This document shows, one piece after another, positions 11,534-28,576 of a stretch of DNA of 64,000 nt. How positions within the stretch are numbered: the stretch's first letter is position 1; every line of letters begins with the position of its first letter. This DNA is from Ilumatobacteraceae bacterium (lineage in GTDB: Bacteria; Actinomycetota; Acidimicrobiia; Acidimicrobiales; Ilumatobacteraceae): the NCBI GenBank assembly GCA_032118015.1, contig JAULYE010000010.1, positions 5,113-69,112 on the forward strand, in the 5' to 3' direction. The notes under the pieces are model-generated. The model saw only the letters and a program-made list of their open reading frames with translations. It ran no database searches and had not been told where the DNA came from. Made by a program: the position numbers and the translations under genes.

Positions 11534-11758
11534 GAGGACGCCAGGCTACCAATGCGCAACTCGGTGGCCGTTTGAGCACACTGCCCGGGTGCCCATTCAG
11601 GCAGATATTCATGGGCACTTGTAACCGACTGGGCGAACGTCAGAAGTGCCCGGTCTTTCCCGGCTCGGACCATGAACCGAGTGCCACCATGACGATCGCT
11701 TTCGAATGGAAGCGGAGTCGCACATGAGCAGGCGATTCTCGACGAGAGGTGAATGGCG

Positions 11759-12655: not shown

Positions 12656-12889
12656 ACCCCGTTCCTGATACCTCATCCGGGGTCATGGCGAGGATCGTTG
12701 GTTCGGGGACGACCGTACATTCGAGGTGGTCCTTGAACACGTCGTCGATCGGGGCCCTCAAGCGGATTGGTTTACGCCGGGCAATCGCATATTGGATGCT
12801 TGGAGTGCCATTGCCGGCCATGATACAGTTCAGTAGACGTGTGGTAAGGCGCAATTGAGCAGGCGCCCGTCGACAAGAGGTGAGTGACG

Positions 12890-13807
12890 ATGTTCGGGCA
12901 ACGACGACGTGGCGCGTCTTTTATTGTGACGACCTTGATGACCGTGGGCCTGGTGGCCGTCACGGGAGAGTCAGGGCCGGTGTCGGCCGCTGACGAGGGC
13001 GAGGTTTTGCGGTGCACCCCAGTGGTGTATCTCGCTCAGGGAACATCGGTGACAGTCGAGGGCGTTACGGTCACCGCCACACTAAATACGGCACGTGAAA
13101 GTGTGGCCGGAGCCATCAACCCGTACGCGTATTTCTTGGGAGCCCTGTTTGAGCCGGTTGGGTTCGTGGGCTGGCCGGCATCCTTCGAGACGTCCTGGGA
13201 GTTCGATCCACCGATTCCCGCTGTGCGGTTCGAGACGCAATATCACACTGACGGGATAGGAGAGACGTTCACCTTGACTGCGAGAAACTCGAATCTCGCG
13301 AGCCCTCAGATTTGGACGACCGCGATCGTCGATCAGAACACGACCGTTCAAACCGTATTCTCGTCACCTGCGGACAAGATCGATGCGAGGTTCTCGCCGG
13401 AAGTTGGTCAGTTCGCCTCGTATCTCATCATGTGCATTCCCATCCGATCGGCGACCGTGCAAGCGCCGTCCGGCTCCATGGTCACGGGCGAACAACTGCC
13501 GTCACTCGTTGCGACCGCTTTCGTGACACCAGGGATTGTGTCCACAGCAGCTAACACACCAGTGACATTCGATCAGGAGCCAACGTGCGGTCTGGAAGAT
13601 GGTCTCGGCAACTCGGTCGTGCTCTCGAGCTCGACACCCGCGGGGACATACGCCGTCGTCTGTGTCGGTGGCACGGCGACGGGTTTCGAATTACTCACTT
13701 ACCTCGACGGAGTGTTCGTGGTAGAGGAGTACCGGCGGGGCTTTCCAGAGGACTACCTCGAGCGTCGTTTGGCTGCCGAGGCCTCGCTTCTTCCTGACAC
13801 GCATTGA
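12890..13807 (+). CDS. Secreted protein A2 (tandem paralog of A1), ending ...LLPDTH-stop
   Basis: Signal peptide MFGQRRRGASFIVTTLMTVGLVAVTGESGPVSAA. The last ~80 aa are nearly identical to A1. The last codons are gac acg cat tga. Confidence 0.75.
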   Translation: MFGQRRRGASFIVTTLMTVGLVAVTGESGPVSAADEGEVLRCTPVVYLAQGTSVTVEGVTVTATLNTARESVAGAINPYAYFLGALFEPVGFVGWPASFETSWEFDPPIPAVRFETQYHTDGIGETFTLTARNSNLASPQIWTTAIVDQNTTVQTVFSSPADKIDARFSPEVGQFASYLIMCIPIRSATVQAPSGSMVTGEQLPSLVATAFVTPGIVSTAANTPVTFDQEPTCGLEDGLGNSVVLSSSTPAGTYAVVCVGGTATGFELLTYLDGVFVVEEYRRGFPEDYLERRLAAEASLLPDTH

Positions 13808-13883: not shown

Positions 13884-14906
13884 ATGGGTGTGGTCCCACT
13901 GGCGCTGATCGGCGGAGTTCTCGGCGGATCGCAGACAGCCGGCGCAGGTGCCGCCGTCTTCGGCGTCGACTACTTCATATCCGCGCCGCTGGTACAGGGG
14001 TCGTACGTATCGTTGACGTCTGAATTTATCCAGGAAACATTTGATGGCTATGGCTATGGCTCGGGCCCGTGCCCCAGCTCGTTGGCTAGCGGAGCAATCA
14101 CGGTGACCGCCGGCGTGTGCACAGTCAGCGCATTAAACGAGTACGGGGGAGCGAGTTCCACAGGTGCAACTGCCAACGTGGATGACGCTGGCTGGAACTA
14201 TGCCACGACTGGAGGCACTGGACTGATCGAGTTCACGATGTCGGCTCCACAGAGGTACCTCGGATTTTGGTGGAGTGCTGGTTCGGCCTCGAACGCTGTG
14301 ACGTTCTACAGCGGTGAAACGGAGATCTTGAGTTTGACCACTGCTGAAGTCTTCGCCCTGTTCGGCAGTGCCCCCACGAACCAGGCCACGTACACGGTGG
14401 ACGACGTATCAACTGTTGATGCCATTGACCCGAGCATCGAAGCCACAAACGGATCGGCGTATTTCAAGCATCATTACTTCGGGAATCCACGCGGATACTC
14501 CACGACCTCTCCAACGTGGGCTCAATGGAACTTGCACACCTTGGCAAGATCGGAGCCGTTCGTCTACCTCCACATTTTCAGCAAGGGTGGTCTCTACTTC
14601 GACCGCGTGGTCTTTTCGGGTGGTGGATTCGAATTCGACAACTTCGTCGTCTCGCCGTTGGCCCAGACGCCGAATGGCTCTCTCGTGCCTGTGGGAGGTG
14701 TGGAGGGCACGCCTCCTCCAGACTTCGAACCAGATAGTCGTCCGCGCACTCCGTCGATCGATCTGGATCACTACCTCGTGCGGACGGAGTTGCCTGACAC
14801 CGGCGCTGAGTCTGGTGCCGTTGCGTGGATCGGGGCGTGCCTCGTGCTTGGCGGAGGTGCCATCACGGTCAGGGTTCGTCGATCAAGGGTGCGCCTGACA
14901 GCTTGA
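13884..14906 (+). CDS. LPDTG cell-wall-anchored surface protein, family B member 1
   Basis: The C-terminus TELPDTGAESGAVAWIGACLVLGGGAITVRVRRSRVRLTA is a tripartite sortase signal. Conserved blocks are shared with 19929..20984 and 25746..26699. An in-frame TAA lies at 13875, so the start cannot be further upstream. The signal peptide is weak. Confidence 0.75.
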   Translation: MGVVPLALIGGVLGGSQTAGAGAAVFGVDYFISAPLVQGSYVSLTSEFIQETFDGYGYGSGPCPSSLASGAITVTAGVCTVSALNEYGGASSTGATANVDDAGWNYATTGGTGLIEFTMSAPQRYLGFWWSAGSASNAVTFYSGETEILSLTTAEVFALFGSAPTNQATYTVDDVSTVDAIDPSIEATNGSAYFKHHYFGNPRGYSTTSPTWAQWNLHTLARSEPFVYLHIFSKGGLYFDRVVFSGGGFEFDNFVVSPLAQTPNGSLVPVGGVEGTPPPDFEPDSRPRTPSIDLDHYLVRTELPDTGAESGAVAWIGACLVLGGGAITVRVRRSRVRLTA

Positions 14907-15073
14907 TTGCCCGATCGGGCACATGTCAACGCAACTCCTGCCTGATCATCTGAACTGTTGCCGACAAGACGCCCATCCGCAATCGACCCTCCTACGGTTG
15001 GTCGTGTCGGAAACAGGTTCGCATCGTCGAATCAAGAGCAGAGGATTTCTTTGTGGTGCGTCATTCGAAATCG

Positions 15074-16351
15074 ATGGTCGAGAAGTTGGTAATCAGAGTG
15101 TGTATCGGGGTGGCGGCGGGGTCGGTGCTCGGTCTCGTGGCGCTCGAGAGTCCACTGAGTGCGGCTGGCACTCTTGAGGATTTCGAGTCCGATAGCGAGG
15201 GTGGATATCCAGCGAATTGGACCGTTGTTCAAGAACGTGTCGTTCTCGGTGAAACGTCGCTGGCAGGTTGTACATCGATCGATCAGGCGTCGTACGACAC
15301 CTTGGACAATCTCGATGATCCGTGGCGTTTCTTGTGGAGCCCTGAGAGACCTGGCATCGATAGGTCGCCGACTTTCGGCACGCTCGGTTCTGGTACGCAC
15401 GACGAGTACGGATACTTCCGCGAATGGTTCGCTCCCGGTGAATCGAGTCAGTACCTCGTTGATGGAAGCATTCAGTCCTGGTGGTATGACGGTTACTACG
15501 GCTTCGGTCCAGAGGACGACTATCCGAACAACTTCGACCAACTCACCGTCGATCAACGCGTCGACCTTTTGGTGATGCAGGCCGAGTACCTCAACGACCA
15601 GCCAGCGGATCCTCAATGGAGTACCTACGAGGATCGGTACGACGTCATGGTGCTCGACGGCACCGGCTACGGCATCGGATGGAACAGCCAGGTTCTACAG
15701 CTGTACAGCTGGACGGACTCCTACGAAGGCCATGTCATCCACGGCCCGGCGGTCGTCAGCACTGGTGTCTTCAATGTGACGACCGAGGCAACCGTGAGCT
15801 TCAAGTTTTCGGCGTCACGCGACATGGACTATTTCCACGTCTATGGATATCTCCAGGACATCAATGACTGCACGAAGCAGTATCCCGTCCTGGATGCCAC
15901 CGGAGAAAGTCTTGGTTGGTCGACGTTTACGGCCGATGTGCCAACCGGGGAATATCGCTTCGTCTTCGTTGGCGGCACGTATGACGGCACCTGGGGACAG
16001 TTGGGTGGCGCCTTGCTCTGGATCGACGACATTGGATGTGTCGGGCTGGATGGTGGTTCATGTGCAGTCGTCACCTGCGACGCAGATCCAAACGGTCTGA
16101 GCGACTGCACACCTGAGCCGATTGGACCCGGACTCGAGATCGACGAGATCGAGTTCCTCCCCAATGAAAGTGGACCGACGCGTCCGATCCAGTGGATTCA
16201 GGACGCCCTCGCTGCTGAGACAGTCGAGGAATTGCCTTCGACTGGATCGAATACGAACCTGGTGTCATTAGCCGGAGCACTGACAATTCTCGGCGCAGGG
16301 ATAATGGTGCTGCGCCGTCGTCAGACGATCACAGCGTCCTCACGACGATGA
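15074..16351 (+). CDS. LPSTG cell-wall-anchored surface protein (possible lectin/MAM-like jelly-roll domain)
   Basis: Signal peptide MVEKLVIRVCIGVAAGSVLGLVALESPLSAAG (ATG 15074; GTG 15053 is an alternative). The C-terminus is EELPSTGSNTNLVSLAGALTILGAGIMVLRRRQ. The domain guess from YRFVFVGGTYDGTWGQLGGALLWIDDI is tentative. Confidence 0.7.
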   Translation: MVEKLVIRVCIGVAAGSVLGLVALESPLSAAGTLEDFESDSEGGYPANWTVVQERVVLGETSLAGCTSIDQASYDTLDNLDDPWRFLWSPERPGIDRSPTFGTLGSGTHDEYGYFREWFAPGESSQYLVDGSIQSWWYDGYYGFGPEDDYPNNFDQLTVDQRVDLLVMQAEYLNDQPADPQWSTYEDRYDVMVLDGTGYGIGWNSQVLQLYSWTDSYEGHVIHGPAVVSTGVFNVTTEATVSFKFSASRDMDYFHVYGYLQDINDCTKQYPVLDATGESLGWSTFTADVPTGEYRFVFVGGTYDGTWGQLGGALLWIDDIGCVGLDGGSCAVVTCDADPNGLSDCTPEPIGPGLEIDEIEFLPNESGPTRPIQWIQDALAAETVEELPSTGSNTNLVSLAGALTILGAGIMVLRRRQTITASSRR

Positions 16352-16407
16352 GATCTGGGCGCCAGGATGCCCGGCGCCCAGATACTCGTTTTCCAGGAAT
16401 GCGTCTT

Positions 16408-16902
16408 TCAGCTACAGGGCTTGGAGGCGAGTTCGCCGCCGAGCGCATTCTGCAGAGCTGACAAGATCTCGTCGATCTCCGTCGACTTGTCTGCAGTTGA
16501 CTCGGACAAAGAAAAGGCGCTTGCGGCCCACGTGTCACCGCGCAAATAGCGGATTTCGCCAAGGTGTGAGTCGCTCGTGCACATGATCTCGCTGTCGATC
16601 TCAGATTCGAGAGTCTCGGCATCGGCCCATACGTACGCACTGACTCCGATGGAGGAGAAGGTGTTGCAGATGGCGCGCTCAGCACTGGTCATCGCCATGG
16701 ACTCCGGCTGACAGGTGTAGTCGTTGGCTTCGATCGCCTCGGTCACGTTGCCGAGGACCCCGTCGAACGTCTGCTCGCCGGAGTCGCCGCCGCCAGCCGC
16801 ATCGCTTCCTGACTGGTCCGATGATCCGCCTCCACACGATGTGAGAAGAACGGCTGCTGCTGATAGGGCTAGGAAGGTATGTCGTTGATTTGTCACGGGC
16901 AT
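16408..16902 (-). CDS. Lipoprotein, unknown function
   Basis: Start at Met36 of ORF 16408..17007: MPVTNQRHTFLALSAAAVLLTSCGGGSSD, with lipobox LLTSC. The upstream gene ends at 16952. Confidence 0.65.
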   Translation of the reverse strand: MPVTNQRHTFLALSAAAVLLTSCGGGSSDQSGSDAAGGGDSGEQTFDGVLGNVTEAIEANDYTCQPESMAMTSAERAICNTFSSIGVSAYVWADAETLESEIDSEIMCTSDSHLGEIRYLRGDTWAASAFSLSESTADKSTEIDEILSALQNALGGELASKPCS

Positions 16903-16951
16903 GAAAAATAGTTCATCGGCACATTCGGTTCGTGGATGGCTTGGATGTGGG

Positions 16952-17806
16952 TCAGCGGCAGACGTTGCGCGTGTGTCCGACACCGTCGAGCGTCGACACG
17001 AGGACATCCCCCGGCTTCAAGAACGTCGGCGGCTTGTGCGACATGCCAACTCCACCTGGCGTGCCGGTGTAGATCACATCACCAGGGAGAAGTTCGACGA
17101 TCGTCGACAGGTACGAAATGATCGTCGGCACATCGAAGATCAAGTCGTCGGTGAGCGTGTCTTGCACCGTCTCACCGTTGAGCGTCATCGACAGATGCAT
17201 GCGATCGCGATTGGCGAGATCTGCTGCGTCCATGAGCCAGGGCCCGAATGGCGAGTAACCCCGACGGCTCTTACCGAGGTTGAACTGCGGCGGTTGCGTG
17301 GCGAACTGCAGAGTTCGATCGGAGATGTCTTGACCGACGGCCACGCCGGCGACGTGATCCCACGCCGAAGCGGCGGGAATATCGCGCCCACCAGTCGCGA
17401 TCACGGCGACGAGTTCGACTTCCCAGTCCACTGTCTGTGAACCGAGCGTGATGTCGGCGTTCGGTGCAGCGATCGAACTGGTGAACTTGGTGAACGTCAA
17501 TGGACTCGCCGGAATCGGCATACCGGATTCCTCGGCGTGTGTGCGGTAGTTGAGGCCGATCCCGAACACTTGATACGGCATGGGTGATGGTGCACCGAGT
17601 AGCGACGCATCGATCGATGGTGCCGTGTCGAACGCGCTCGATGGGAGTGATGCGCTGAACGCGCGGAGTGCGTCCCACCGTGCGAAGGCGTCCATCGGTT
17701 CGGGAGAGAATGCTTCGTTGGACGCCGTCTCGAGATCGACGTACCGGGTGCCGTCATCGCTCACGAGAACTGCGCGCCCACCGATGTTCGCGTAGCGAAG
17801 AGTCAT
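16952..17806 (-). CDS. Fumarylacetoacetate hydrolase (FAH) family protein
   Basis: Start at MTLRYANIGG (ATG 17806, ATGA overlap with the MFS stop). Motifs: GIGLNYRTHAEE, DWEVELVAVI, PGDVIYTGTPGGVG. Confidence 0.85.
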   Translation of the reverse strand: MTLRYANIGGRAVLVSDDGTRYVDLETASNEAFSPEPMDAFARWDALRAFSASLPSSAFDTAPSIDASLLGAPSPMPYQVFGIGLNYRTHAEESGMPIPASPLTFTKFTSSIAAPNADITLGSQTVDWEVELVAVIATGGRDIPAASAWDHVAGVAVGQDISDRTLQFATQPPQFNLGKSRRGYSPFGPWLMDAADLANRDRMHLSMTLNGETVQDTLTDDLIFDVPTIISYLSTIVELLPGDVIYTGTPGGVGMSHKPPTFLKPGDVLVSTLDGVGHTRNVCR

Positions 17807-19083
17807 ACGTCGGACTGTACCAGTGCCGATTTTGGAGAAAGCTTGTGAGTAATCGGTCGGTCTCGGTTTTCGCTTCGTGACATGAACAAGAAGGCGAGCG
17901 CACTCAAGGCGCTGACAGTTGCACAGACAGCAATGATCACTCGACCATTCGTCGGATCGAATGTCAGCAAACCGATGAGGAGACCGACGAGGAAGAGAAG
18001 ATTGTGGTTGACGTCGTAGAGAGCGAACTCGCGGCCGCCTGCTCCGGGGATTGCATTCGACTGCACAGTTGCGTCGGAACACAGCCGAATGTTCTGGAAG
18101 ACGAATGTGCTGAAACCGAATCCCAGCAGGTATGCAATTCGCGTGTCGACGATCACCATCAGTGTGAACATGATCGCCGTACTGGTGAATGCGAGGAGGG
18201 TCATCATCCGTCGACTGAAATGCTCATTGACCCATTCGGCGGTGTTGGTGCCGATGAAGGTTCCCAGTCCACTCGCGCCCATCACGGCCGCGAAAGCGAC
18301 GGCCGAATTCGCGTTGGATCCGTCACCGATCAGAGCAACACAGGCGAGTACCACTCCGAGAAGAAGACGATTGAGGCCAGTTGCTGTCATGGCGTAGCGA
18401 AGTTTTGGGACTCGCAAGTGTTCGAGCACTTCGCTCCATCGAGCAATGGTGTGTTCACGCCCACCACCAGTCGACCCGGCAATCGTTCGGATCCACAACG
18501 CTGACATTGCATGTCCGATAGCGACGATCACGAAACCTGTGGGTCCGATCAACCACAACAGTGCGACACCACACCCACCTCCGACCACACCGGCCACCGT
18601 TCCCACTGTCAAGCTCGCTGAGTCTGCGGCTACCAGTTCGTGGTTACGAACCAGGTGGCGAATGGACGCAAGACGCGCTGTGTATAGAACCTTCGAAGTG
18701 CACAACGACACCGCCCAGATGACGAACATGACCGGATCGACATCGAAAAGCGCAGCAAACAGAAGTCCGAGGACGAGGACGACTCGCAACATCTGCCCGT
18801 GGAACATGATCCCTCGTCGAGTGAAGCGATCAGCCATGAATCCGCTCAATGGTCCGGCCAACAAAATGGGAAGAGCTGAGGTCGCGACCATCGTTGCAAT
18901 CTGCGACGTCGCAGGTCCCTTCGGGGTGAGGAACAAGACGAGACCAGCCAGGATGACCGTGCCTGCGGCGTCGCTGGCCTGAGAGGTGAATTGGGACAGA
19001 AGCAGCCGCCTGAAGTCGGAGTAGCGCAGGAGATCGCGACGTCGGACATGCAGAGCATTGTCTGAGCGAGTCAGTGTCGGCAT
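17803..19083 (-). CDS. MFS transporter
   Basis: About 12 hydrophobic segments. The N-terminus LRYSDFRRLLLSQFTSQASDAAG is typical of the enterobactin-exporter-like MFS subfamily. Start taken at Met36 (MPTLTRSD). Confidence 0.8.
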   Translation of the reverse strand: MPTLTRSDNALHVRRRDLLRYSDFRRLLLSQFTSQASDAAGTVILAGLVLFLTPKGPATSQIATMVATSALPILLAGPLSGFMADRFTRRGIMFHGQMLRVVLVLGLLFAALFDVDPVMFVIWAVSLCTSKVLYTARLASIRHLVRNHELVAADSASLTVGTVAGVVGGGCGVALLWLIGPTGFVIVAIGHAMSALWIRTIAGSTGGGREHTIARWSEVLEHLRVPKLRYAMTATGLNRLLLGVVLACVALIGDGSNANSAVAFAAVMGASGLGTFIGTNTAEWVNEHFSRRMMTLLAFTSTAIMFTLMVIVDTRIAYLLGFGFSTFVFQNIRLCSDATVQSNAIPGAGGREFALYDVNHNLLFLVGLLIGLLTFDPTNGRVIIAVCATVSALSALAFLFMSRSENRDRPITHKLSPKSALVQSDV

Positions 19084-19263
19084 CGGGAATTCGTCCACGC
19101 AGACACTCTCCCCAATGGAAATGACGGTGTTGGAAGGTTGCGGTGAACTTTGGCTGAACTTTGACCAGGACCGAGACCTATGAGGCACCTTGTAGGGCGA
19201 GCTTCACCGTTTGGCGATCATCAACCTGCCGCGTCTCCACGAGCGCGACAACAGCGCCGCCGG

Positions 19264-19821
19264 TCAGAGAGTGTCGGGCAGTGCGGAGGTTTCGGATCGA
19301 TCGCGCAGGACGAAGTTCGGTACTTCGATGTCGGGCATCGTGTCGAAGTACCGAACCCTGATCGACGTGCTGCACAACACCGATTGTGGGTTCTCCGATG
19401 GGTCATCGCTCGTCGAGGTGTAGGCCACGTTGATGGTGTAGCCGTCGCCGTCTTCGAGGGGCAGTGAGACGCCGAGGAAGAACTCGAGTGTGTCTTCGAG
19501 ATCGAAGCGAGAGACATCAGCGGTTGTTTCGATGTTGACTGGAGTGAAACCACCGGCCAATTCCTGCCACGGTTCGGAGTCACGAGAGATCCATTGCCAC
19601 ATCGCAGCTGGTGCCACCCATCCAGATGCGGAACCGGAGAAGGTTGCGATGGGCTCGAACCGATTCTGGTCGCCGGCGAGAAGGACGAAACCAGGTTCGT
19701 AGGAGATGTCGCATGTTCCCCCCGAACCAGCCGATGCACTAGAGGTACCGAAGGTGAGTGACGCGAGGGCGATCGCTGCGGCGGACAGCGCACGTGTTCG
19801 GATTGGGTGATTGTGATGCAT
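19264..19821 (-). CDS. Secreted 185-aa protein of unknown function, ending ...ALPDTL-stop
   Basis: Signal peptide MHHNHPIRTRALSAAAIALASLTFGTSSASAGSGG. The last codons on the minus strand are ctg ccc gac act ctc tga. Confidence 0.7.
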   Translation of the reverse strand: MHHNHPIRTRALSAAAIALASLTFGTSSASAGSGGTCDISYEPGFVLLAGDQNRFEPIATFSGSASGWVAPAAMWQWISRDSEPWQELAGGFTPVNIETTADVSRFDLEDTLEFFLGVSLPLEDGDGYTINVAYTSTSDDPSENPQSVLCSTSIRVRYFDTMPDIEVPNFVLRDRSETSALPDTL

Positions 19822-19928
19822 GAGAATTCCCTAAAGTCGGACTGAATAGATACGTCACAGAGAGTAGATCAATCGGGTCTCAGTAGCGCAGTTTTTTAGG
19901 AACATTGTTGGTTTATGGTGAGGACATT

Positions 19929-20984
19929 GTGAGCGGAACAGCAGTTAAGCGCGTCCTATTTTTCGTTGTCCCCCTCCTCACGGTCGGTGGCACCCTTGGC
20001 GGGTCATCGGGGGTGAGCGCCGGAGTGTCCGAGTACGGCGTGGACTACTACATCTCACCACCACTCGTTCAGGGATCGTACGTGCCTGGGCAATCCGAGG
20101 ACTTCAACGATTTTGATACCGCGGCTACTTGTCCGCCGACGATTGCCAATGGAGAGATCGCCGTGACGGGTGCGTGCAAAACTCTGATAGCGGATGGATC
20201 CGGAGGAGCAACTGCGGAAGCAATAGATCCGACTCCCACAGTGGGCGCACCAGGTTCGGATTACGCAAGCACAGACTCTGGGGGAGAGATCACCTTCATC
20301 ATGCCCGAGGCTCAGCGTTATCTGGGTTTCTGGTGGAGCGCAGGTTCCGGCGGCAACATTGTTCGATTCTTTGACGGGGACAACGAGGTGCTCTCGTTGA
20401 ACACCGATGACCTAACGGCTCTTCTCGGGTTAGCGCCAACCAGTGTCGGTGACTTCGGATCGACAGGATTTATCGAGTCCCTGGATACGGCCTCGACCTA
20501 CGTCAGACATCACTATTTTGGTAATCCGCGCGGTGTGTTGGCCAGCGCGGCTGGCAGCCCACCGGTGATGACGGCAGCGCTGTGGGAGGGGAACACAACC
20601 AATTACGTGCCCGTCCCTGGCGGAACCATTTACTCGGAACCCTTCGTCTACCTTCATGTCCTCGGACAGGGAAACTTGAGCTTCGACCGGGTGACCTTTT
20701 CCGGCTTCGGCTTCGAATTCGACAACTTCGTGGTGTCGCCGTTCAGTCAAACACCACAGGGCTCATTGGTTCTTGCTGGTTCCGCCGCCGGAACGCCGCC
20801 GCCGGACTTCGAGCCGCCAGCTGGTGGCGGTCGCACACCGTCGATCGATCTCGGTCATTATCTCGAACGCTCTGAGTTGCCCAACACGGGCCGCCGCAAC
20901 ATGAGTCTCGAGTGGATGGCAGCAACGTTCGTTGCAATCGGAACGATTCTCTTGGGTGCACAGCGACGCATACGTCGCGTGTGA
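19929..20984 (+). CDS. LPNTG cell-wall-anchored surface protein, family B member 2
   Basis: GTG 19929 gives (M)SGTAVKRVLFFVVPLLTVGGTLGG, preceded by ggtgagga. The C-terminus is SELPNTGRRNMSLEWMAATFVAIGTILLGAQRRIRRV. It shares the GVDYYISPPLVQGSYV, QRYLGFWWSAGSGGN, HHYFGNPRG and FEFDNFVVSP blocks. Confidence 0.8.
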   Translation: MSGTAVKRVLFFVVPLLTVGGTLGGSSGVSAGVSEYGVDYYISPPLVQGSYVPGQSEDFNDFDTAATCPPTIANGEIAVTGACKTLIADGSGGATAEAIDPTPTVGAPGSDYASTDSGGEITFIMPEAQRYLGFWWSAGSGGNIVRFFDGDNEVLSLNTDDLTALLGLAPTSVGDFGSTGFIESLDTASTYVRHHYFGNPRGVLASAAGSPPVMTAALWEGNTTNYVPVPGGTIYSEPFVYLHVLGQGNLSFDRVTFSGFGFEFDNFVVSPFSQTPQGSLVLAGSAAGTPPPDFEPPAGGGRTPSIDLGHYLERSELPNTGRRNMSLEWMAATFVAIGTILLGAQRRIRRV

Positions 20985-21163
20985 AAGCTCTCGGTACATC
21001 GTTGACGTTCGCTGTTGTTTCTCGCATGTGACCGAAAGGACACCAGGAGTCGGCACCGAAAGGTCACCTGTTGTTCACTGTGCACCTACTGTCATGGCAT
21101 CGGCATTCGCCGATTCATGACACGACGTTTCGATCCCGAATCGTCCGTTCACAGGAGGAATCA

Positions 21164-21733
21164 ATGCGTAAGCGTTCAATATCCCTCGCCCTGCTTGCAG
21201 CAGGATCGTTGATCTTCACAGCGTGTGGAGAGGACCCGGCCAACACAGCGACCACCCAAGCCCCGGCTGAGGAAAATGGCGAAGCCGAAGCAGGGGGCGA
21301 CATCATTGCTGTCGCCACGGCTGCCGGATCTTTCAACACTCTTGCTGCGGCTCTCGAAGCGGCTGGTCTGATCGAAACCCTTCAGGGTGAAGGTCCATTC
21401 ACAGTGTTCGCACCGACAGATGAAGCGTTCGCTGCACTGCCTGAAGGTCTTCTCGATGCCCTGCTGCTCCCCGAAAATGTGGAGATTCTCACGGCCATCT
21501 TGCTGTTCCATGTGATCTCCGGATCTGAAGTCACTTCCGACATGGTGGCTGCTGGTGATGTCGAGATGGCAAGTGGTGCCATGGCAACGATCGTCGTCGA
21601 TGGCGAGACCATCACGATCGCCGGTGCGCCAATCACAGCGGTGGACGTTCAGGCGTCCAATGGCGTCATTCACGTCCTCAGCAGTGTCATGGTGCCAGCT
21701 GACGTCGACGTCGCAGCACTTCTTGCTGGCTGA
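21164..21733 (+). CDS. Fasciclin (FAS1) domain lipoprotein
   Basis: aggagg SD, then MRKRSISLALLAAGSLIFTACGEDP (lipobox). FAS1 motifs [17 protein letters not shown] and NGVIHVLSSVMVP. Confidence 0.9.
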   Translation: MRKRSISLALLAAGSLIFTACGEDPANTATTQAPAEENGEAEAGGDIIAVATAAGSFNTLAAALEAAGLIETLQGEGPFTVFAPTDEAFAALPEGLLDALLLPENVEILTAILLFHVISGSEVTSDMVAAGDVEMASGAMATIVVDGETITIAGAPITAVDVQASNGVIHVLSSVMVPADVDVAALLAG

Positions 21734-21799
21734 TTTCCTGACGCAGTCACCCAGTGCAATCTGATAGTTGGGGCGAGGTCTTCGGACTTCGCCCCAACT
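21711..21799. repeat. 89-bp direct repeat, copy 1 (last 23 nt of the fasciclin gene plus its terminator)
   Basis: tcgcagcacttcttgctggctgatttcctgacgcagtcac[c]cagtgcaatctgatagttggggcgaggtcttcggacttcgccccaact. It is repeated at 22492-22580 with a single mismatch. Confidence 0.95.
21766..21799 (+). terminator. Stem-loop terminator of the fasciclin gene (15-bp stem with one G.U pair, TTCG loop)
   Basis: agttggggcgaggtc-ttcg-gacttcgccccaact, located 33 nt after the stop codon. No U-tract, as is common in Actinobacteria. Confidence 0.7.
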
Positions 21800-21833
21800 C
21801 GTTGTCCGGTGCTAGTGCACTTGGTCCATGATG

Positions 21834-22283
21834 TCAGGGGAGATTTTGCAAGTCGTCATGATCTTTGGGCCGTCCACTCGCTTGCTTGTTGACCTTGAGA
21901 TCGTTCAATGAAATAACGGGAACCAGTAATCCACTGATTATCCGAGATTCGGAACGTCCGTAACAAGCATCGAATGTGACTCCATCGATGTCCATGAGAA
22001 TCTCGATGCGAATTGGTGCTTCACCCATTCGAACGATGCGGTCAGGGTCTTCGAACAGTGGAGGAGTCAGATCTGGAGTGTCGAACCCAAATTCACGTAG
22101 ACACGCAACAATTCGTTCAGCGTTGGTGCGATTTCTTGCAACCCAGATGTCCAAATCTGCAGTGGCGCGCGGGTAGCCATGAAGTGCAACTGCAAACCCT
22201 CCGACGAGGAGATATTCAACGTTGTGGTCGTTGAGTAATTTCAAGAACTCGGAGAAGTCTTGAGGAAACTCGATCTTGTCCAT
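21834..22283 (-). CDS. Nucleotidyltransferase-fold protein (MNT/AbiEii-like; putative toxin-antitoxin or defence component)
   Basis: FSEFLKLLNDHNVEYLLVGGFAVALHGYPRATADLDIWV is the classic GG...HG..R.T.D.D minimal NTase motif. Confidence 0.7.
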   Translation of the reverse strand: MDKIEFPQDFSEFLKLLNDHNVEYLLVGGFAVALHGYPRATADLDIWVARNRTNAERIVACLREFGFDTPDLTPPLFEDPDRIVRMGEAPIRIEILMDIDGVTFDACYGRSESRIISGLLVPVISLNDLKVNKQASGRPKDHDDLQNLP

Positions 22284-22416
22284 AGTTCATCCTGACCAGT
22301 TCAAGAACGTGTTGAAGACGGGCTTCGGGGGCCTGAGTTGACCAGTACGCCTTATCCAATTCGGTGGCTTCTTGGTGAGTGGCCGAAATGTGCAGCGTTT
22401 TCTCCATCGAGCCCAA
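22216..22416 (-). CDS. Small partner protein of the NTase (66 aa)
   Basis: MGSMEKTLHISATHQEATELDKAYWSTQAPEARLQHVLELVR...RLLRVLEI. It lies immediately upstream of the NTase and overlaps it by 68 nt out of frame. The call is uncertain. Confidence 0.4.
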   Translation of the reverse strand: MGSMEKTLHISATHQEATELDKAYWSTQAPEARLQHVLELVRMNYGQDRVSSRLLRVLEITQRPQR

Positions 22417-22491
22417 ATTCTACCGATCGATGCGAAGAGTTGGAGATAAGACTCCCGTGCTCCTTGGCCCGACTACCCAACGCAATCGTGA

Positions 22492-22580
22492 TCGCAGCAC
22501 TTCTTGCTGGCTGATTTCCTGACGCAGTCACTCAGTGCAATCTGATAGTTGGGGCGAGGTCTTCGGACTTCGCCCCAACT
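22492..22580. repeat. 89-bp direct repeat, copy 2 (orphan fasciclin 3' end plus terminator hairpin at 22547-22580)
   Basis: Identical to 21711-21799 except for one c-to-t change. Confidence 0.95.
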
Positions 22581-22732
22581 ATCTCACCTTCGTTGCGGAG
22601 GCAGTACGCGAGATTCTCCGCCTATCATGAAAAAATGCAAAGACTGAAGAGTTTCATCGCCCCAGTCGTCGTTATCGCCGTCGCCACTGCCGTCTTCATA
22701 GCTAGTGCAGTTCGACTTTGACGTGAGTCGGT

Positions 22733-22957
22733 TTATTTCTTTTCGTCCGGCAAATTATCGATGCCATTACCGATTGCCATGAATGTTGGAGCCCAGAGCC
22801 CAACGAAAATTCCAAAGCGCTCTCCTGATGCTTGAACCTCGCCGTTATCTGTTCCGCCCTGAGTGAACCAGATGACGATGCTCGCAATAACCGACAGGAA
22901 TCCAAGCGCATAGGAAAGATTCGCGCTGTAGCCCCATGATTTCAATTTCCTCAACAT
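22733..22957 (-). CDS. Small two-TM membrane protein (74 aa)
   Basis: A strong aaggag SD lies 5 nt before ATG 22957. MLRKLKSWGYSANLSYALGFLSVIASIVIWF...FGIFVGLWAPTFMAIGNG. It is divergent from the GNAT-AAA gene. Confidence 0.6.
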   Translation of the reverse strand: MLRKLKSWGYSANLSYALGFLSVIASIVIWFTQGGTDNGEVQASGERFGIFVGLWAPTFMAIGNGIDNLPDEKK

Positions 22958-23161
22958 ACGTACTCCTTGTTGCAAATTGAAATGAGCTTTTGCCCACGTG
23001 CGAATTGTCCCACACAGTCAAAGAACCTCACGGGATGCTGGGCGGCGTCCCGGCACGTCCCATTCCTTTGCGTGACTCGATCATTGACAAAGGTTGGAGT
23101 CATCACCAGACTCGAGGCACATCAGAGGCGTCTCGGCCAAAAGGTCGGTAAGAATACAACT

Positions 23162-24430
23162 ATGAGCGTCGTCATTCGGGATCTGCTTCTCACAGACATC
23201 GGCCCTGCTGTGCGTCTCCTGGAGGAATGTCGAAATCTGGCTGATACGAAACCGGCAGATATCGCACAATTCGTGAATGACGTTTCCTCTGGCGCACCAG
23301 GAGTCGTCGCGGTTCTCGGTGAAAAGATCGTGGGAATCATCCAAGCTCGCACCGTCGCTGACGATGCCTGGATCAACGTTGTTGTTATCGATAGTTCCTG
23401 GCGTCATCAAGGACTGGGTTCCAAGATGCTGCAAAGGCTCGAAGAAAAGTTGATGCATCTGGGTGTACGGAAAATCTCTGCTTTGCTGTCGAATTCCCAA
23501 GCAGGAGAAACCGCTTTGGTGAATCGTGGTTTCACCTCCACTCACGATCTCGTGCTGTACGAGAAGTTGGAGCCGATTGCTCCGACTGCGATGCGTATCG
23601 TCGATCAATATGGCGGGGAGATTCTGCCGACAACGCTTTGGGACCGTGTTGCTGGAATGCATGAGGAAAAACGGGTCATTGATGGGCGTGTAGTGGCGCC
23701 CTTGGCCGATCCAACGACTGCTGAGAAAGTGGGAGTCAAGGCTCCAGCAACTGTCTTGCTTTTTGGCCCTCCGGGCACTGGCAAGACAACTTTTGCCAAA
23801 GCCATTGCGGGTCGTCTTGGGTGGCCATTTATTGAACTACTGCCGTCCAAATTGGAAAGCGGAAGTGACTCGATGTCGTCGGAACTTCGAACTGCCATCA
23901 GTGATCTTCTCCAGTTGGATCACGCGGTTGTCTTCATCGATGAATTCGATGAGATCGCCTCGGCCAGGGAACACAATCCAACAACAAAAGGGGTGGTGAA
24001 CGAATTATTGAAAATGATTCCTCTCTATCGATCCACCCCGGGACACTTGTTGGTCTGTGCCACGAATTTCGTAGGAGACATTGACTCGGCTGTGTTGCGT
24101 CCGGGCAGATTTGACTTGGTGATCCCGATCGGCCCGCCCGATCTCGTGGCGCGACGTGCATTGTGGAACGCTGCCCTTTCGTCGCTGGACCACCGTGGCG
24201 TCGAAATTGAAAAGCTCGCGCTTCAAACCGAGGGTTACACACCTGGTGATGTGGAATTGGCGGCCCAAAGGGCTGCAGCTGCTGCCTTTGACCGCATTCG
24301 AGAAGGTGCTGAGCCTCCGCATATTTCCGCAGACGATCTTGATGCGGCTATCGCCCGTACTCGAGCCTCGGTGACGAGTGAAATTCGCCAACGATTCAGC
24401 GAAGAGGCCGATCGATTCGCTCGGGTGTGA
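23162..24430 (+). CDS. GNAT acetyltransferase / AAA+ ATPase fusion protein
   Basis: Start at ATG 23162 (MSVVIRDLL). GNAT motif A is WRHQGLGSKMLQRLEEKL. The AAA+ part has Walker A LLFGPPGTGKTT, Walker B AVVFIDEFDE, NFVGDIDSAVLRPGRFD (second region of homology with Arg finger) and a C-terminal helical lid. Confidence 0.8.
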   Translation: MSVVIRDLLLTDIGPAVRLLEECRNLADTKPADIAQFVNDVSSGAPGVVAVLGEKIVGIIQARTVADDAWINVVVIDSSWRHQGLGSKMLQRLEEKLMHLGVRKISALLSNSQAGETALVNRGFTSTHDLVLYEKLEPIAPTAMRIVDQYGGEILPTTLWDRVAGMHEEKRVIDGRVVAPLADPTTAEKVGVKAPATVLLFGPPGTGKTTFAKAIAGRLGWPFIELLPSKLESGSDSMSSELRTAISDLLQLDHAVVFIDEFDEIASAREHNPTTKGVVNELLKMIPLYRSTPGHLLVCATNFVGDIDSAVLRPGRFDLVIPIGPPDLVARRALWNAALSSLDHRGVEIEKLALQTEGYTPGDVELAAQRAAAAAFDRIREGAEPPHISADDLDAAIARTRASVTSEIRQRFSEEADRFARV

Positions 24431-24495
24431 ATGTCTCAAGGGTTTGATCTCAGCGAGTTCCTCAGTCGTCGGACCGACCTCGAGTCCCGCGTCAC

Positions 24496-24837
24496 GGCGA
24501 GCCGGCCAACACGGCCACCACCGAAGTCACGATAGAAGACAGTGACTCCAGCGAGGAGTTGGGCGACATCGTTTCCGTCGCATCTGCTGCTGGCTCGTTC
24601 TCGACCTTGGCTGCGGCTCTCGAAGCTGCCGGTCTCATTGAGACCCTTCAAGGTGAAGGTCCTTTCACCGTGTTCGCACCCACGGATGAGGCATTCGCTG
24701 CCCTTCCCGATGGGTTGCTCGACGCCCTGCTCCTCCCGGAGAACGTTGAAGTTTTGAAGTCCATCTTGCTGTTCCACGTGATCAGCTCGGTCATGGTTCC
24801 GTCCGATGTGGATGTGGCTGCGCTGCTTGCTGGCTGA
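24496..24837 (+). pseudogene. Fasciclin paralog remnant (no signal peptide or lipobox; ~58-aa internal deletion)
   Basis: [11 protein letters not shown]...[53 protein letters not shown] aligns with 21164..21733. An in-frame TGA lies upstream at 24445. The sequence jumps from LLFHVIS directly to [16 protein letters not shown]. Confidence 0.7.
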
Positions 24838-24865
24838 TTCCAGACGAAAATCGATCAATTCGAAA

Positions 24866-24899
24866 AGTGGGGGTGAGGCTTGCGGGCTTCACCCCCACT
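24866..24899 (+). terminator. Terminator hairpin, variant B copy 1 (14-bp stem with one G.U pair)
   Basis: agtgggggtgaggc-ttgcgg-gcttcacccccact. It has the same architecture as the 21766 hairpin and is repeated at 26817-26850. Confidence 0.7.
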
Positions 24900-24989
24900 C
24901 GTTTGTGGGAGCGAAAGAAAAAGTTTTCCGCTGGGGCCTCTCTTTCGAATTCACCGCTCACGCCTATTCTGTTATCGGTGGATCAAACA

Positions 24990-25583
24990 GTGACAAGTCG
25001 CAAACGATCTCGGGAACCAGAGACGATGGAAAGGATTCTCATCAGCGCCCGCAAAGAGATTGCGGCGAAGGGAATTCTCGGTCTTCGTGTCGCCGATGTT
25101 GCAGAGGGAGCATTTTCCTCTGTGACTCAGATCTACCGCTACTTCGGTGATCGAAACGGACTCTTGGCCCGCGTACTCGGCGATTGGTACGAGGAGTCCC
25201 TTGATCAGAGTCTGACCACTATCCAGAAGCGACTCGACGTAATCGAAAACGTGACGATCGATGACATTGCTGATGCGCTACCCAGTCCGACCGAGGATTG
25301 GGTACGCGTTCACAGTGGCATGCGGCTTCAGATTCTTGCGACATCTGTGACCAATTCAGCGCTTCAGGAACGCCTGAAGGCAATCGCCAGCGTCCATTTG
25401 CTTCGATGGAACGAGTACATCGAACGCGTGGCATCGAGGCTTGGTGACGAAGAAGAGTTGGATGATCGAGTGTTCACGATCATGATCGCGATGCAGATGC
25501 CGTACTACCGGTTCCTACTCGATGACGGCGGTTTCAGTGAATCGGAGTACCGCGATTTTTTACGACAGAAGTTGCGCCGCTGA
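24990..25583 (+). CDS. TetR-family transcriptional regulator
   Basis: SRKRSREPETMERILISARKEIAAKGILGLRVADVAEGAFSSVTQIYRYFGDRNGLL is a TetR N-terminal HTH. The start is GTG 24990 or ATG 25026. Confidence 0.8.
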   Translation: MTSRKRSREPETMERILISARKEIAAKGILGLRVADVAEGAFSSVTQIYRYFGDRNGLLARVLGDWYEESLDQSLTTIQKRLDVIENVTIDDIADALPSPTEDWVRVHSGMRLQILATSVTNSALQERLKAIASVHLLRWNEYIERVASRLGDEEELDDRVFTIMIAMQMPYYRFLLDDGGFSESEYRDFLRQKLRR

Positions 25584-25622
25584 CGCAGGCGCGCTTGGTG
25601 AGTTGATTGTGATGAACTGAAG

Positions 25623-25650
25623 CTTGCGGAAGAAAATTTTCTTCCGCAAG
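25623..25650. promoter_or_regulatory. Perfect 28-bp palindrome (cttgcggaagaaaa/ttttcttccgcaag): candidate TetR operator or bidirectional terminator
   Basis: Verified base by base. It lies 40 nt after the TetR stop and 96 nt before the LPNTG gene start. Confidence 0.5.
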
Positions 25651-25745
25651 TCGGTCATTGTCTCTTTGTTCCCGAGCACATAAACAGGTGGGGCTCACAA
25701 TGTGCATGGCTCTTACGCCCATTACCGAAAGTTGAAGGAACAATC

Positions 25746-26699
25746 ATGAGTTTTCGTCTTCGTGCAGGTACTGCGGCATCCACGGTCGTGTTGGTGGCTG
25801 CCGCCGCTCTGGCACAGGCTGCCCCAGCTGGTGCCATCGGCGCGGTCTTCGGACTCGACTACTACATCAGCGCGCCATTGGTCCAAGGAACACACGTATC
25901 AGGCGGAGTTAAGGAAAATTTCAACTCCTTGGTATCGTGCAGCGGCTCGATCGGAACGGGCAGTGCAATTGCGGTTTCCGGAGATTGCGTGCTGGAGAGT
26001 TCTGCGAATCAATTCGGTGGGGCCGTAACGGACAGCGCGACCCCAACGGCTGGAGGCAGCGGTTCAGCTTTCCCAATTGCTGACAATGATCCAGGAACCA
26101 CCTTCACTCTTTCTGGACCGCAGTGTTATCTCGGCTTTTACTGGACTGCCGGCTCGGGTGGCAACACCGTTGAGTTCTTCAGTGACGGGGAACTGGTTCT
26201 CTCTTTCAACAGTGATCAAATTATTGCAATCCTCAATCCAAGTGAAGTAGCAACACTCGTGTCAGTAGGTGGCACGACGTATCAGAAGGCACTTTGGTAC
26301 GGCAATCCCCGCGGTCACTCGGATATCGATTCCAATGGAATACCCGACGGAACCTCAACCCTCAACGATGGCGAGCCTTATGTCTACCTCAACGTTTATG
26401 GTAAGGGTGGTTTGACGTTCAACTCGGTTCGGTTCTCTGGCCCCAACTTCGAATTCGACAATCTTGCGTTCTCTTCTTCGTGCGAGACGCCCCCGAGTTC
26501 GAGTGTCTATCTTGGCTACGTTGGAGAAGGCGAACCTGAGTCGCCGAACTTGCGGATTAATCCAGACTACCTCACACGAACGACCGAGGAACTTCCGAAC
26601 ACCGGGGCCTCATCAAATACTCTTAACTGGGTCGCTTTGGCCCTCGCCGGAGGAGGCATTTCTCTCCTAAGGATTCGACGAAGACTTGCCGAGTACTGA
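25746..26699 (+). CDS. LPNTG cell-wall-anchored surface protein, family B member 3
   Basis: Signal peptide MSFRLRAGTAASTVVLVAAAALAQAAPAGA. Blocks: GLDYYISAPLVQGTHV, CYLGFYWTAGSGGN, WYGNPRG, EPYVYLN, FEFDNLAFS. The C-terminus is EELPNTGASSNTLNWVALALAGGGISLLRIRRRL. Confidence 0.8.
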   Translation: MSFRLRAGTAASTVVLVAAAALAQAAPAGAIGAVFGLDYYISAPLVQGTHVSGGVKENFNSLVSCSGSIGTGSAIAVSGDCVLESSANQFGGAVTDSATPTAGGSGSAFPIADNDPGTTFTLSGPQCYLGFYWTAGSGGNTVEFFSDGELVLSFNSDQIIAILNPSEVATLVSVGGTTYQKALWYGNPRGHSDIDSNGIPDGTSTLNDGEPYVYLNVYGKGGLTFNSVRFSGPNFEFDNLAFSSSCETPPSSSVYLGYVGEGEPESPNLRINPDYLTRTTEELPNTGASSNTLNWVALALAGGGISLLRIRRRLAEY

Positions 26700-26710
26700 T
26701 CTTTAGAACT

Positions 26711-26788
26711 TCCAACGGCGTGATCCACGTGATCAGCTCGGTCATGGTTCCGTCTGATGTGGATGTGGCTGCTCTTCTTGCTGGCTGA
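26711..26788 (+). pseudogene. Orphan fasciclin 3' fragment ([25 protein letters not shown]-stop)
   Basis: Matches the last 25 codons of the fasciclin genes. It is followed by hairpin B copy 2. Confidence 0.8.
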
Positions 26789-26816
26789 TTCCAGAAGAAG
26801 ATCGAAATCCTCTAAA

Positions 26817-26850
26817 AGTGGGGGTGAGGCTTGCGGGCTTCACCCCCACT
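26817..26850 (+). terminator. Terminator hairpin, variant B copy 2
   Basis: Identical to 24866-24899. Confidence 0.7.
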
Positions 26851-26895
26851 GCATTTTCTGAAGACGGCGCCCGAATTGACTGTCAGACTGTCGCC

Positions 26896-27387
26896 ATGAG
26901 CGTCGTGATTCGAGATTTACTGTCGACCGATATCAGCCCCGCTGTGCGGCTGTTGGAAGAGTGTCGATCCCTACCTGATACGAAACCGGCCGATTTCGCC
27001 CAATTCGTGAGCGATGTGTCATCTGGTGCTCCAGGTGTCGTCGCGGTCGACGCGGCCTAGCGCCACAAAGGAATCGGCTCGGCGATGCTGCAGCGTCTGG
27101 AAGAAAAGTTGATGCATCTGGGTGTACGGAAAATCTCTGCTTTGCTGTCGAATTCCCAAGCAGGAGAAACCGCTTTGGTGAATCGTGGTTTCACCTCCAC
27201 TCACGATCTCGTGCTGTACGAGAAGTTCGAGCCCATTGCTCCGACTGCGATGCGTATCGTCGATCAATATGGTGGCGAGATTCTGTCGGCCGATCTGTGG
27301 GATCGGGTAGCTGGCATGCACGAAGAAAAGAGAATCATCGACGGGCGTGTCGTAGCGCCACTCGCCGACCCGAACAAAGCAGAATAA
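26896..27387 (+). pseudogene. Decayed GNAT/linker half of a second GNAT-AAA+ gene
   Basis: MSVVIRDLLSTDISPAVRLLEEC... parallels copy 1. It has a ~26-codon deletion, an in-frame TAG (27058-27060) before RHKGIGSAMLQRLEEKL, and an in-frame TAA (27385-27387) where copy 1 has Lys. Confidence 0.75.
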
Positions 27388-27393
27388 GTCGGT

Positions 27394-28089
27394 GTGAAGG
27401 CCCCGGCGACGGTGCTGCTCTTTGGCCCTCCAGGAGCCGGGAAGACGACCTTCGCCAAAGCAATAGCCGGCCGTCTGGGATGGCCGTTCATCGAGTTGCT
27501 GCCGTCCAAATTGGAGAGCGGAAGTGATTCGATGTCTTCGGAGTTGCGCACGGCAATGAACGACTTGTTGCAACTGGATCGTGCTGTCGTCTTCATCGAC
27601 GAGTTCGACGAAATCGCATCGGCCAGAGAACGCAACCCCACGACCAAAGGAGTGGTCAACGAATTGCTGAAGATGATTCCGGCGTATCGATCTGCGCCGG
27701 GACATCTCTTGGTGTGCGCCACGAATTTCGTCGGCGAAATCGACTCGGCTGTGTTGCGTCCGGGCAGATTTGACTTGGTGATTCCGATCGGTCCGCCCGA
27801 TCTGACAGCCCGGATTGCTCTGTGGGAAGCAGCGCTCTCACGCCTCGATCAACGCGGAGTCGACATCGACAATCTGGCGAGGAACACCGAGGGTTACACA
27901 CCTGGTGACGTCGAGCTGGCTGCCCAACGAGCAGCAGCTGCCGCATTCGATCGGATTCGCGAAGGGGCAGGACCCTCTTACGTCTCAGCTGACGACCTCG
28001 ACAGGGCGATCGGGCGCACCCGGGCATCGGTCACCAGTGACATTCGCCAGCGGTTCGCCGACGAAGCAGATCGCTTCGCCCGCGTCTAG
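27394..28089 (+). CDS. AAA+ ATPase module of the second copy (possibly still expressed from GTG 27394)
   Basis: Intact Walker A (GPPGAGKTT), Walker B (VVFIDEFDE) and RPGRFD. Most differences from copy 1 appear to be synonymous (by eye). Confidence 0.55.
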   Translation: MKAPATVLLFGPPGAGKTTFAKAIAGRLGWPFIELLPSKLESGSDSMSSELRTAMNDLLQLDRAVVFIDEFDEIASARERNPTTKGVVNELLKMIPAYRSAPGHLLVCATNFVGEIDSAVLRPGRFDLVIPIGPPDLTARIALWEAALSRLDQRGVDIDNLARNTEGYTPGDVELAAQRAAAAAFDRIREGAGPSYVSADDLDRAIGRTRASVTSDIRQRFADEADRFARV

Positions 28090-28266: not shown

Positions 28267-28576
28267 CCGCAGAACACCTTGATACCGCAGGTTTTCTTGG
28301 ATGCGCCATCTCGTGCTGACATCAGTTGTCTGCCGAGTTCTGTATCCATTTCTAGATGAGCCGTGGATGATCATCTACCTCACGTCATGGAGGCAGCTCA
28401 CCTTCTCGCGCCAGCAAACTTCATGCATGTGATTTGAAATTGCGAACGACCACACCGGAATGATTGGTGACATCTGTATGTGGTATTGAAGAGTTCCGAC
28501 GGTAGACCAGTAAGTGGCAACTGTTAGGTGGGTGGTTCTGGCGGATCACGCAGTATTGAGGTGGGAGCACCCTTTC

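Follow-up and report, generated by a model that had tools for sequence, protein, structure and literature searches.

Three neighbouring genes in a 64,000-nt stretch of an Ilumatobacteraceae genome (assembly GCA_032118015.1, contig JAULYE010000010.1, positions 5,113 to 69,112; 'the window' below means this whole stretch) encode diverged copies of one protein family. We consider it probable that they are accessory, sortase-anchored proteins that display a portable beta-sandwich binding module of the type described by the NCBIfam model NF050191 (Npun_F0296 family exosortase-dependent surface protein domain), and that the family was acquired and then expanded. The source is a small freshwater actinobacterial genome, a metagenome-assembled genome (MAG) that is 90.8% complete and comprises 2.18 Mb in 219 contigs. 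In the scenario we propose, the proteins would be secreted, and the class E sortase of the genome would link them covalently to the wall, each presenting at its wall-distal N-terminus a beta-sandwich domain of ~230 amino acids (aa), which we take as the actinobacterial form of the NF050191 domain. The family probably entered this genome by horizontal acquisition and expanded thereafter, copies 1 and 2 by duplication within the lineage, with copy 3 representing an older paralogue carried in a repeat-bracketed cassette behind a TetR gene.

The intact open reading frames (ORFs) lie within 13 kb on the forward strand, where a sequence-only reading of the window had placed them as a three-member paralogous family of LPxTG proteins: 13884-14906 (copy 1, 340 aa), 19929-20984 (copy 2, 351 aa from the GTG at 19929, or 359 aa from a TTG at 19905) and 25746-26699 (copy 3, 317 aa, the most divergent). 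The proposed paralogy is borne out by BLASTP, the three pairs showing 47%, 35% and 36% identity (E = 2.8e-91, 6.2e-53 and 3.1e-50), and by the LP[DN]TG-plus-tail ending of all three. In an end-to-end MAFFT alignment copies 2 and 3 are 51% and 39% identical to copy 1, and the likeness goes well beyond chance, a profile of the family scoring the three at 220-240 bits. The blocks G[VL]DY[FY]IS[AP]PLVQG, YLGF[WY]W[ST]AGS..N, (F)GNPRG, EP[FY]VYL[HN] and FEFDN[FL] are common to all three copies, as that reading had listed them, with the exception of TPPPDFEP, which is restricted to copies 1 and 2; copy 3 has GEGEPESPN at the same place.

All three proteins share one layout from N- to C-terminus, namely a hydrophobic, signal-peptide-like start, the ~230-aa domain, a short proline-rich linker, a pre-anchor motif of the general form IDLDHYLxR, LP[DN]TG, ~20 hydrophobic residues and an arginine-rich tail. 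In copy 1 the putative signal peptide covers approximately residues 1-23, followed by the Npun_F0296-type domain (13953-14699), the TPPPDFEP linker (14709-14732), IDLDHYLVR (14757-14783), LPDTG (14790-14804), the hydrophobic stretch and the tail RVRRSRVR. Copy 2 has its domain at 20043-20801, TPPPDFEP at 20793-20816, IDLGHYLER at 20844-20870 and LPNTG at 20877-20891, and copy 3 has its domain at 25836-26528, INPDYLTR at 26556-26579 and LPNTG at 26592-26606, the hydrophobic stretch of copy 3 being followed by the tail RIRRR.

The sequence-only reading could not place the domain in a known family, and in this it has to be corrected: NF050191, a model of 158 positions with a curated cut-off of 29 bits, matches copies 1, 2 and 3 at 75.7, 70.2 and 80.1 bits. 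Coverage is nearly full, spanning model positions 10-157 in copy 1 and 5-158 in copy 3, and falling into two stretches in copy 2. When the whole genome was scanned with the model, the three copies were its sole matches (51.6-76.7 bits). Since NF050191 describes an exosortase-dependent surface protein domain, the likeness to PEP-CTERM proteins that the same reading had suggested proved sound. The homologous domain was thus known already through one curated model, and that model is the only match found; a match to a well-characterised family did not emerge, because the NF050191 family is functionally uncharacterised. Among the databases proposed for searching the core, NCBIfam was the informative one. 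Pfam recognised no domain family in the three proteins (only a weak anchor match) and no family in any of 59 aligned domain sequences, a profile of these 59 domains matched none of the PDB sequences (best E = 0.76), and none of the named NCBIfam choice-of-anchor models (A-X) matched at E ≤ 1. In the literature on the domain family, the sole experimental link found is the mention of Npun_F0296 itself as one of five PEP-CTERM genes induced, in a SigJ-dependent manner, in motile hormogonia of Nostoc punctiforme (PMC12188702).

Ten columns are invariant in the 59-sequence alignment (G66, Y102, G104, W107, G110, N114, F226, E227, D229 and N230 in domain numbering), and because they fall in the YLGFWWSAG..N and FEFDN blocks, these blocks likely form the functional or structural core of the domain. 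A structural Ca2+ site at the E, D and N residues of the domain is a possibility. An AlphaFold2 model of copy 1, built from the alignment of the 59 domains (A3), is confident (pLDDT 90.7, pTM 0.90) and predicts a beta-sandwich with a few short helices, poorly predicted only at residues 151-156, within an insertion specific to the actinobacterial sequences. The structural route that had been suggested for placing the domain therefore delivered a confident fold class, and the accompanying Foldseek search returned weak matches only, with none at E ≤ 0.001 against the PDB. The best of these weak PDB matches (TM-score 0.3-0.5) are EngBF, the gingipain K2 cleaved-adhesin domain, the meprin MAM domain, the carbohydrate-binding modules (CBMs) CBM6, CBM29 and CBM51, and the CBMs of pectate lyases; against BFVD only weak generic beta-sandwich matches appeared, none better than those in the PDB and none at E ≤ 0.001. 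As a separate observation, an N-terminal strand motif of copy 1, FGVDYFISAPLVQGS (13959-14002), resembles the C-terminal FEFDNFVVSPLAQTP (14628-14671), with 66% identity at the DNA level, and likewise in copies 2 and 3; this likeness may be fortuitous or may stem from the internal duplication of an edge strand.

Read directly, the C-termini of all three proteins consist of LP[DN]TG, a hydrophobic stretch and an arginine-rich tail, and the anchor model TIGR01167 (cut-off 15.9) recognises copy 1 (22.6) and copy 3 (24.7). The N-termini, likewise read from the sequences, are hydrophobic in copy 1 and look like typical signal peptides in copies 2 and 3. A class E sortase that would process such substrates is encoded on contig C140 (182.4 bits, cut-off 160), and a second, divergent sortase-family gene lies on contig C112 at 15898-16314 (-), scoring 79.9 bits on the same class E model. 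No match to exosortase (PF09721) was found in the 90.8%-complete genome, and judged from the LPXTG-type C-termini and this gene content the exosortase-dependent label is inapplicable to the window proteins despite the homology of their domain.

The domain is far from confined to this genome. Among 1.84 billion cluster representatives, a domain-only profile built from the A3 alignment matched 1797 protein clusters at E ≤ 1e-3, 994 at E ≤ 1e-10 and 359 at E ≤ 1e-30, with relatives in freshwater Actinomycetota, cyanobacteria, Bacteroidota, Burkholderiales and Verrucomicrobiota; a family without homologues outside this genome, which the sequence-only reading had kept in mind, is not what was found. 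In a word-indexed search nearly all complete proteins among 38 relatives end in LPXTG/LAXTG-type signals when read by eye, and in many of them PF09479 (Flg_new) repeats separate the domain from the anchor. When one genome per species was scanned, 72 loci emerged, from which full ORFs were extracted, and their endings vary with the phylum. Those of Actinomycetota (Rhodoluna, Aurantimicrobium, Pontimonas, other Microbacteriaceae and Ilumatobacteraceae) mostly end in LAxTG or LPxTG with a transmembrane (TM) segment and a basic tail, those of Cyanobacteria, Solibacteraceae and Opitutaceae in PEP-CTERM-like sequences, and those of Rhodobacterales and Verrucomicrobiales in VPLPA-like and VPDTG-like ones; one Burkholderiales protein ends with IPTLSEWG, and in Chitinophagaceae/Sediminibacterium proteins longer than 2000 aa the C-terminal domain is of the gliding type. 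NCBIfam models confirmed PEP-CTERM in one relative (TIGR02595 in L066, 23.5, cut-off 16), IPTL-CTERM in another (TIGR04174 in L057, 34.9, cut-off 20.5) and the type B signal of the type IX secretion system (T9SS) in a third (TIGR04131 in L058, 60.7, cut-off 35), while a fourth (P0098) has an OmpA-like peptidoglycan-binding domain after the Npun_F0296-type domain, a further mode of attachment. The relatives tested for alternative anchors match NF050191 itself at 54-157 bits.

Among the best 150 of the 1797 relatives, the C-termini comprise 47 LPXTG/LAXTG signals with a TM segment, 11 IPTL-like, 10 PEP-CTERM-like and 19 OmpA-like or "RRVxI" ends (of these 19, P0098 alone was checked by a hidden Markov model), the remainder being unrecognised or fragments. 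Because the same domain precedes at least three different C-terminal sorting signals, it is a portable surface module of the 'choice-of-anchor' type (the term is explained in bioRxiv 10.1101/2023.03.06.531300), which different phyla fuse to their own surface-attachment signal. The sequence-only reading had guessed as much, and the phyletic profile with anchor types that it recommended bears the guess out, with LPXTG/LAXTG, PEP-CTERM, IPTL-CTERM, T9SS type B and OmpA-like ends all following the domain. In 139 of the same 150 relatives the domain starts within 70 residues of the N-terminus (median 34), immediately past the signal peptide and at the greatest distance from the anchor, and downstream of it there are often stalk-like repeats (PF09479 Flg_new, tandem-95, internalin-like). 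By analogy, a distal domain on stalk-like repeats is the usual layout of adhesins. We infer from the predicted fold class and the distal position, these being the two observations available for the purpose, that the domain may be an adhesin or glycan-binding module.

Within its own lineage the family is strictly accessory. With NF050191 and the more sensitive A3 profile, the domain was found in none of 24 other species of the genus and none of 16 other families of the order, and among 401 genomes of the class only two have it, this genome and one of a different genus in the same family. All 26 genomes of the genus encode a class E sortase; because the congeners lack the domain while sharing the sortase, the machinery for anchoring belongs to the core genome, and these substrates of it to the accessory part. 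A tree of the 59 domains unites the diderm sequences in one clade (support 98) and places the window copies outside it with the actinobacterial sequences, copies 1 and 2 as sisters (SH-aLRT 82) and copy 3 as sister to a sequence from another actinobacterial MAG, L014 (96). Topology and distribution together fit a horizontally spread, patchy family with local duplication. One member of the tree calls for a separate remark: L049, on a 3.5-kb contig labelled Pseudomonas sp. (SKFV01000164.1), is a family member with an LAATG anchor and is placed close beside (100, short branches) a Microbacteriaceae sequence from an isolate named with the same prefix (CSBr16), so that the contig is probably mis-binned.

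The surroundings of copy 3 deserve attention in this context. Directly upstream lies a TetR-family regulator gene (24867-25583, +; PF00440, 29.5 bits), and the two genes are bracketed by 130-nt direct repeats that are 91% identical, the left at 24770-24899 (+), consisting of a fasciclin-gene 3' end plus downstream sequence, and the right at 26721-26850 (+), 22 nt past the copy 3 stop codon. One member of the family does, then, sit behind a TetR gene in an accessory mosaic, as had been noted from the sequence. GC content at third codon positions (GC3) is 0.67 in copy 1, 0.63 in copy 2 and 0.55 in copy 3. Multiple, partly decayed fasciclin-gene fragments occur at 21233-21735, 24499-24839 and 26711-26790, and a GNAT-AAA+ gene is duplicated and partly decayed (22967-24430 and 26868-28089). 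Judging from these repeats and fragments, the region around copy 3 is a segmentally duplicated mosaic.

Near-identical, intact alleles exist in independent metagenomes, one 94% identical to copy 1 (P0001) and one 97.5% identical to copy 2 (P0006). The contig of the former contains the start of the same LPSTG-protein gene that comes after copy 1, and in that of the latter the family gene is followed by a fasciclin gene, as is copy 2 in the window. The ratio of non-synonymous to synonymous substitution rates (dN/dS), from small counts in both cases, is ~1.2 for copy 1 against its allele (21 non-synonymous, 6 synonymous) and ~0.57 for copy 2 (10 non-synonymous, 6 synonymous). Residues 167-222 of copy 1 (14382-14549), the actinobacteria-specific loop insertion around YFGNPRG, hold 14 of its 19 substitutions, which suggests that this segment is an exposed, fast-changing loop.

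Several observations count against the proposal of three wall-anchored binding proteins and need to be kept in view. The structural matches that hint at binding are weak (best PDB match E = 1.4e-3, with a TM-score of 0.34 normalised to the query). A conserved gene neighbourhood that might hint at function was absent among the relatives examined, their neighbours varying from MBL-fold plus GT2 genes to Germane/Gmad2 plus DUF998 and nitrilase plus GNAT. The signal peptide of copy 1 is poor, having no basic n-region, and the anchor of copy 2 scores 12.7 on TIGR01167, under the cut-off of 15.9, although on direct reading copy 2 has LPNTG, a hydrophobic stretch and the tail QRRIRR. Class E sortases usually prefer LAXTG, and the window proteins have LPXTG. 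Finally, the dN/dS of copy 1 fits diversifying selection and also relaxed constraint. Even so, we regard anchored display of an NF050191-type binding module by an acquired and expanded family as the probable explanation of the combined findings.

Other explanations have to be set beside it. The proteins might be a variable coat that lacks a specific ligand and serves as protection or decoy, their main role as fast-evolving wall proteins being to alter the surface seen by phages or grazers. The strictly accessory distribution, the presence of three diverged copies within 13 kb, the placement of copy 3 in a repeat-bracketed cassette and, in copy 1, the clustering of substitutions in the loop and the dN/dS of ~1.2 would all suit such a coat. 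Against this stands the strong conservation of the domain core across phyla, with its ten invariant columns; such conservation favours a shared molecular role over variability alone, and we hold a pure decoy coat to be unlikely, noting that the decoy and binding roles are compatible and not mutually exclusive. More doubtful still is the idea that the domain is a wall-tethered enzyme with extracellular polysaccharide as its substrate, such as a jelly-roll glycoside hydrolase, lyase or transglycosylase. The invariant E and D of the FEFDN block, E250 and D252 in copy 1 numbering, with the conserved aromatics of YLGFWW alongside, would fit an enzyme, some Foldseek matches lie in glycoside-hydrolase-associated domains, and the BFVD matches include ConA-like lectin/glucanase entries. 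However, no catalytic family was matched in Pfam, NCBIfam or the PDB, the PDB matches are accessory or binding modules rather than catalytic domains, and weak ones, and the domain lies where binding domains typically do, at the end of long proteins rich in repeats.

The most sceptical explanation, that the ORFs are lineage-specific filler, decaying genes or part of a contaminating contig from another organism, is largely refuted and in our judgement very improbable. It could draw on the fragmentation of the MAG into 219 contigs, the lack of the genes in every congener and the deviant GC3 of copy 3. Yet the ORFs are intact, relatives in 1797 clusters extend over several phyla, housekeeping-type genes are present on the same contig, the anchors fit the sortase that the genome encodes, and near-identical alleles with matching neighbour genes recur in independent metagenomes.

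The same genome holds a second set of endings that bears on how these proteins might be sorted. A whole-genome scan revealed ~17 ORFs with the ending LP[DNT]T plus one residue (R, L, H or N) and a stop codon, without a hydrophobic tail, several of them with a signal-peptide-like N-terminus; those in the window are at 11753-12655 (+), 12884-13807 (+), 28514-31612 (+) and 19264-19821 (-), and others are on contigs C40, C53, C85, C94, C110, C112, C129, C156 (two), C160, C204 and C212. The canonical LPXTG with tail occurs in only ~6 or 7 ORFs of the genome, four of them within the window; the fourth, directly 3' of copy 1 at 15053-16351, is an LPSTG protein of 432 aa in which no Pfam or NCBIfam domain was found apart from the anchor. 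The IDLDHYLxR motif of the three family members is also present in several tail-less proteins. Relatives of one 300-aa tail-less protein, at ~50-57% identity, retain the ending (ELPHTR, ALPDTL, ELPHTL, SLPNTR etc.), one of them having LPATG with a tail instead. The closest relative of copy 3 that was found (L014:1109-2071, JBDLRO010000285.1) ends in ELPNTR and a stop, with a convergent GNAT gene directly after it, making a matched pair within the Npun_F0296 family with copy 3, which has LPNTG and a tail; two further family members (P0026 and P0059) are also tail-less. As far as can be read from these C-termini, both kinds of ending, classical and tail-less, are in use within the family. The DNA pattern LPDT-x-TGA was counted 16 times here, 0-2 times in 24 congeners and 5 times in one. 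This enrichment, together with the retention of the ending by diverged relatives and by L014, is evidence that the tail-less ending may be kept by selection.

No NCBIfam model recognises the tail-less ending, one tail-less protein bears a choice-of-anchor Q domain, and nothing relevant to such an ending was found in the literature. Recoding or read-through of TGA was considered as the cause of the tail-less LPDT-x and rejected: the downstream frames encode no hydrophobic tail, two tail-less cases end in TAG, and the canonical members themselves stop at TGA. Two side observations may be added. The 3' 252 nt of the tail-less paralogues (12404-12655 and 13556-13807) are 89% identical, the 5' parts being far more diverged, a pattern that gene conversion or a strongly constrained C-terminal module might explain; and on contig C112 the second sortase gene lies ~15 kb from a tail-less IDLDHYL...LPDTL ORF (75-506).

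We tentatively suggest, as a possibility and not as our firm expectation, that the genome has a species-specific set of surface proteins, the three family members among them, in which one pre-anchor module (IDLDHYLxR ... LPxT) is combined with two endings, the tail-less one being an undescribed sorting or processing signal. One ending would be G followed by a membrane tail, the other a single residue (R, L or H) and the stop. The latter signal would work without a membrane-retention segment and might be recognised by either sortase of the genome, the class E enzyme or the divergent second one. The tail-less LPxT ending is the more surprising, and to us the more interesting, lead than the three domain proteins, whose description is a modest, sortase-dependent extension of a known family.

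The extension has some practical consequences nevertheless. Annotation pipelines based on NF050191 would presumably give the actinobacterial proteins described here the name "exosortase-dependent", an incorrect label in a monoderm with a sortase and without an exosortase. The name of the model is too narrow, and its description should state that the domain takes several anchors. With 1797 clusters the domain family is large, and it has neither a Pfam entry nor a solved structure. Given its near-constant position at the distal tip, it may well serve aquatic bacteria in a binding function common to them, and since the name-giving gene resides in a model organism, Nostoc punctiforme, that organism could be used for finding the function.

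Set against known systems, the window proteins are in part familiar and in part divergent. With the members of NF050191 from cyanobacteria, Verrucomicrobia, Acidobacteria and Proteobacteria they have the YLGFWWSAG..N and FE.DN blocks in common. On the other side, they end in LPXTG sortase signals instead of PEP-CTERM, the actinobacterial form carries a 30-60-residue loop insertion before and after YFGNPRG plus a conserved cysteine pair, and the 70-80 bits of the window copies are far below the scores of most diderm members tested (79-157 bits). They resemble the LPXTG/LAXTG substrates of the actinobacterial class E (housekeeping) sortase in having a putative signal peptide, LPxTG, a hydrophobic stretch and a basic tail, in a genome that encodes such a sortase, and differ from them in the LPXTG rather than LAXTG motif and in the lineage-specific IDLDHYLxR before the anchor. 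Like the choice-of-anchor domains (A to X, for instance choice-of-anchor A, PF20597), theirs is an extracellular domain upstream of alternative sorting signals (LPXTG, PEP-CTERM, T9SS), although it has no sequence match to the named models and NF050191 does not bear that label. With CBM6, CBM29, CBM51, the EngBF domain and the gingipain K2 cleaved-adhesin domain, finally, they would share the general fold class, as predicted by AlphaFold2, and the extracellular setting, the structural similarity itself being weak (E ≥ 1.4e-3, TM-score 0.3-0.5), with no sequence similarity and no mappable binding residues.

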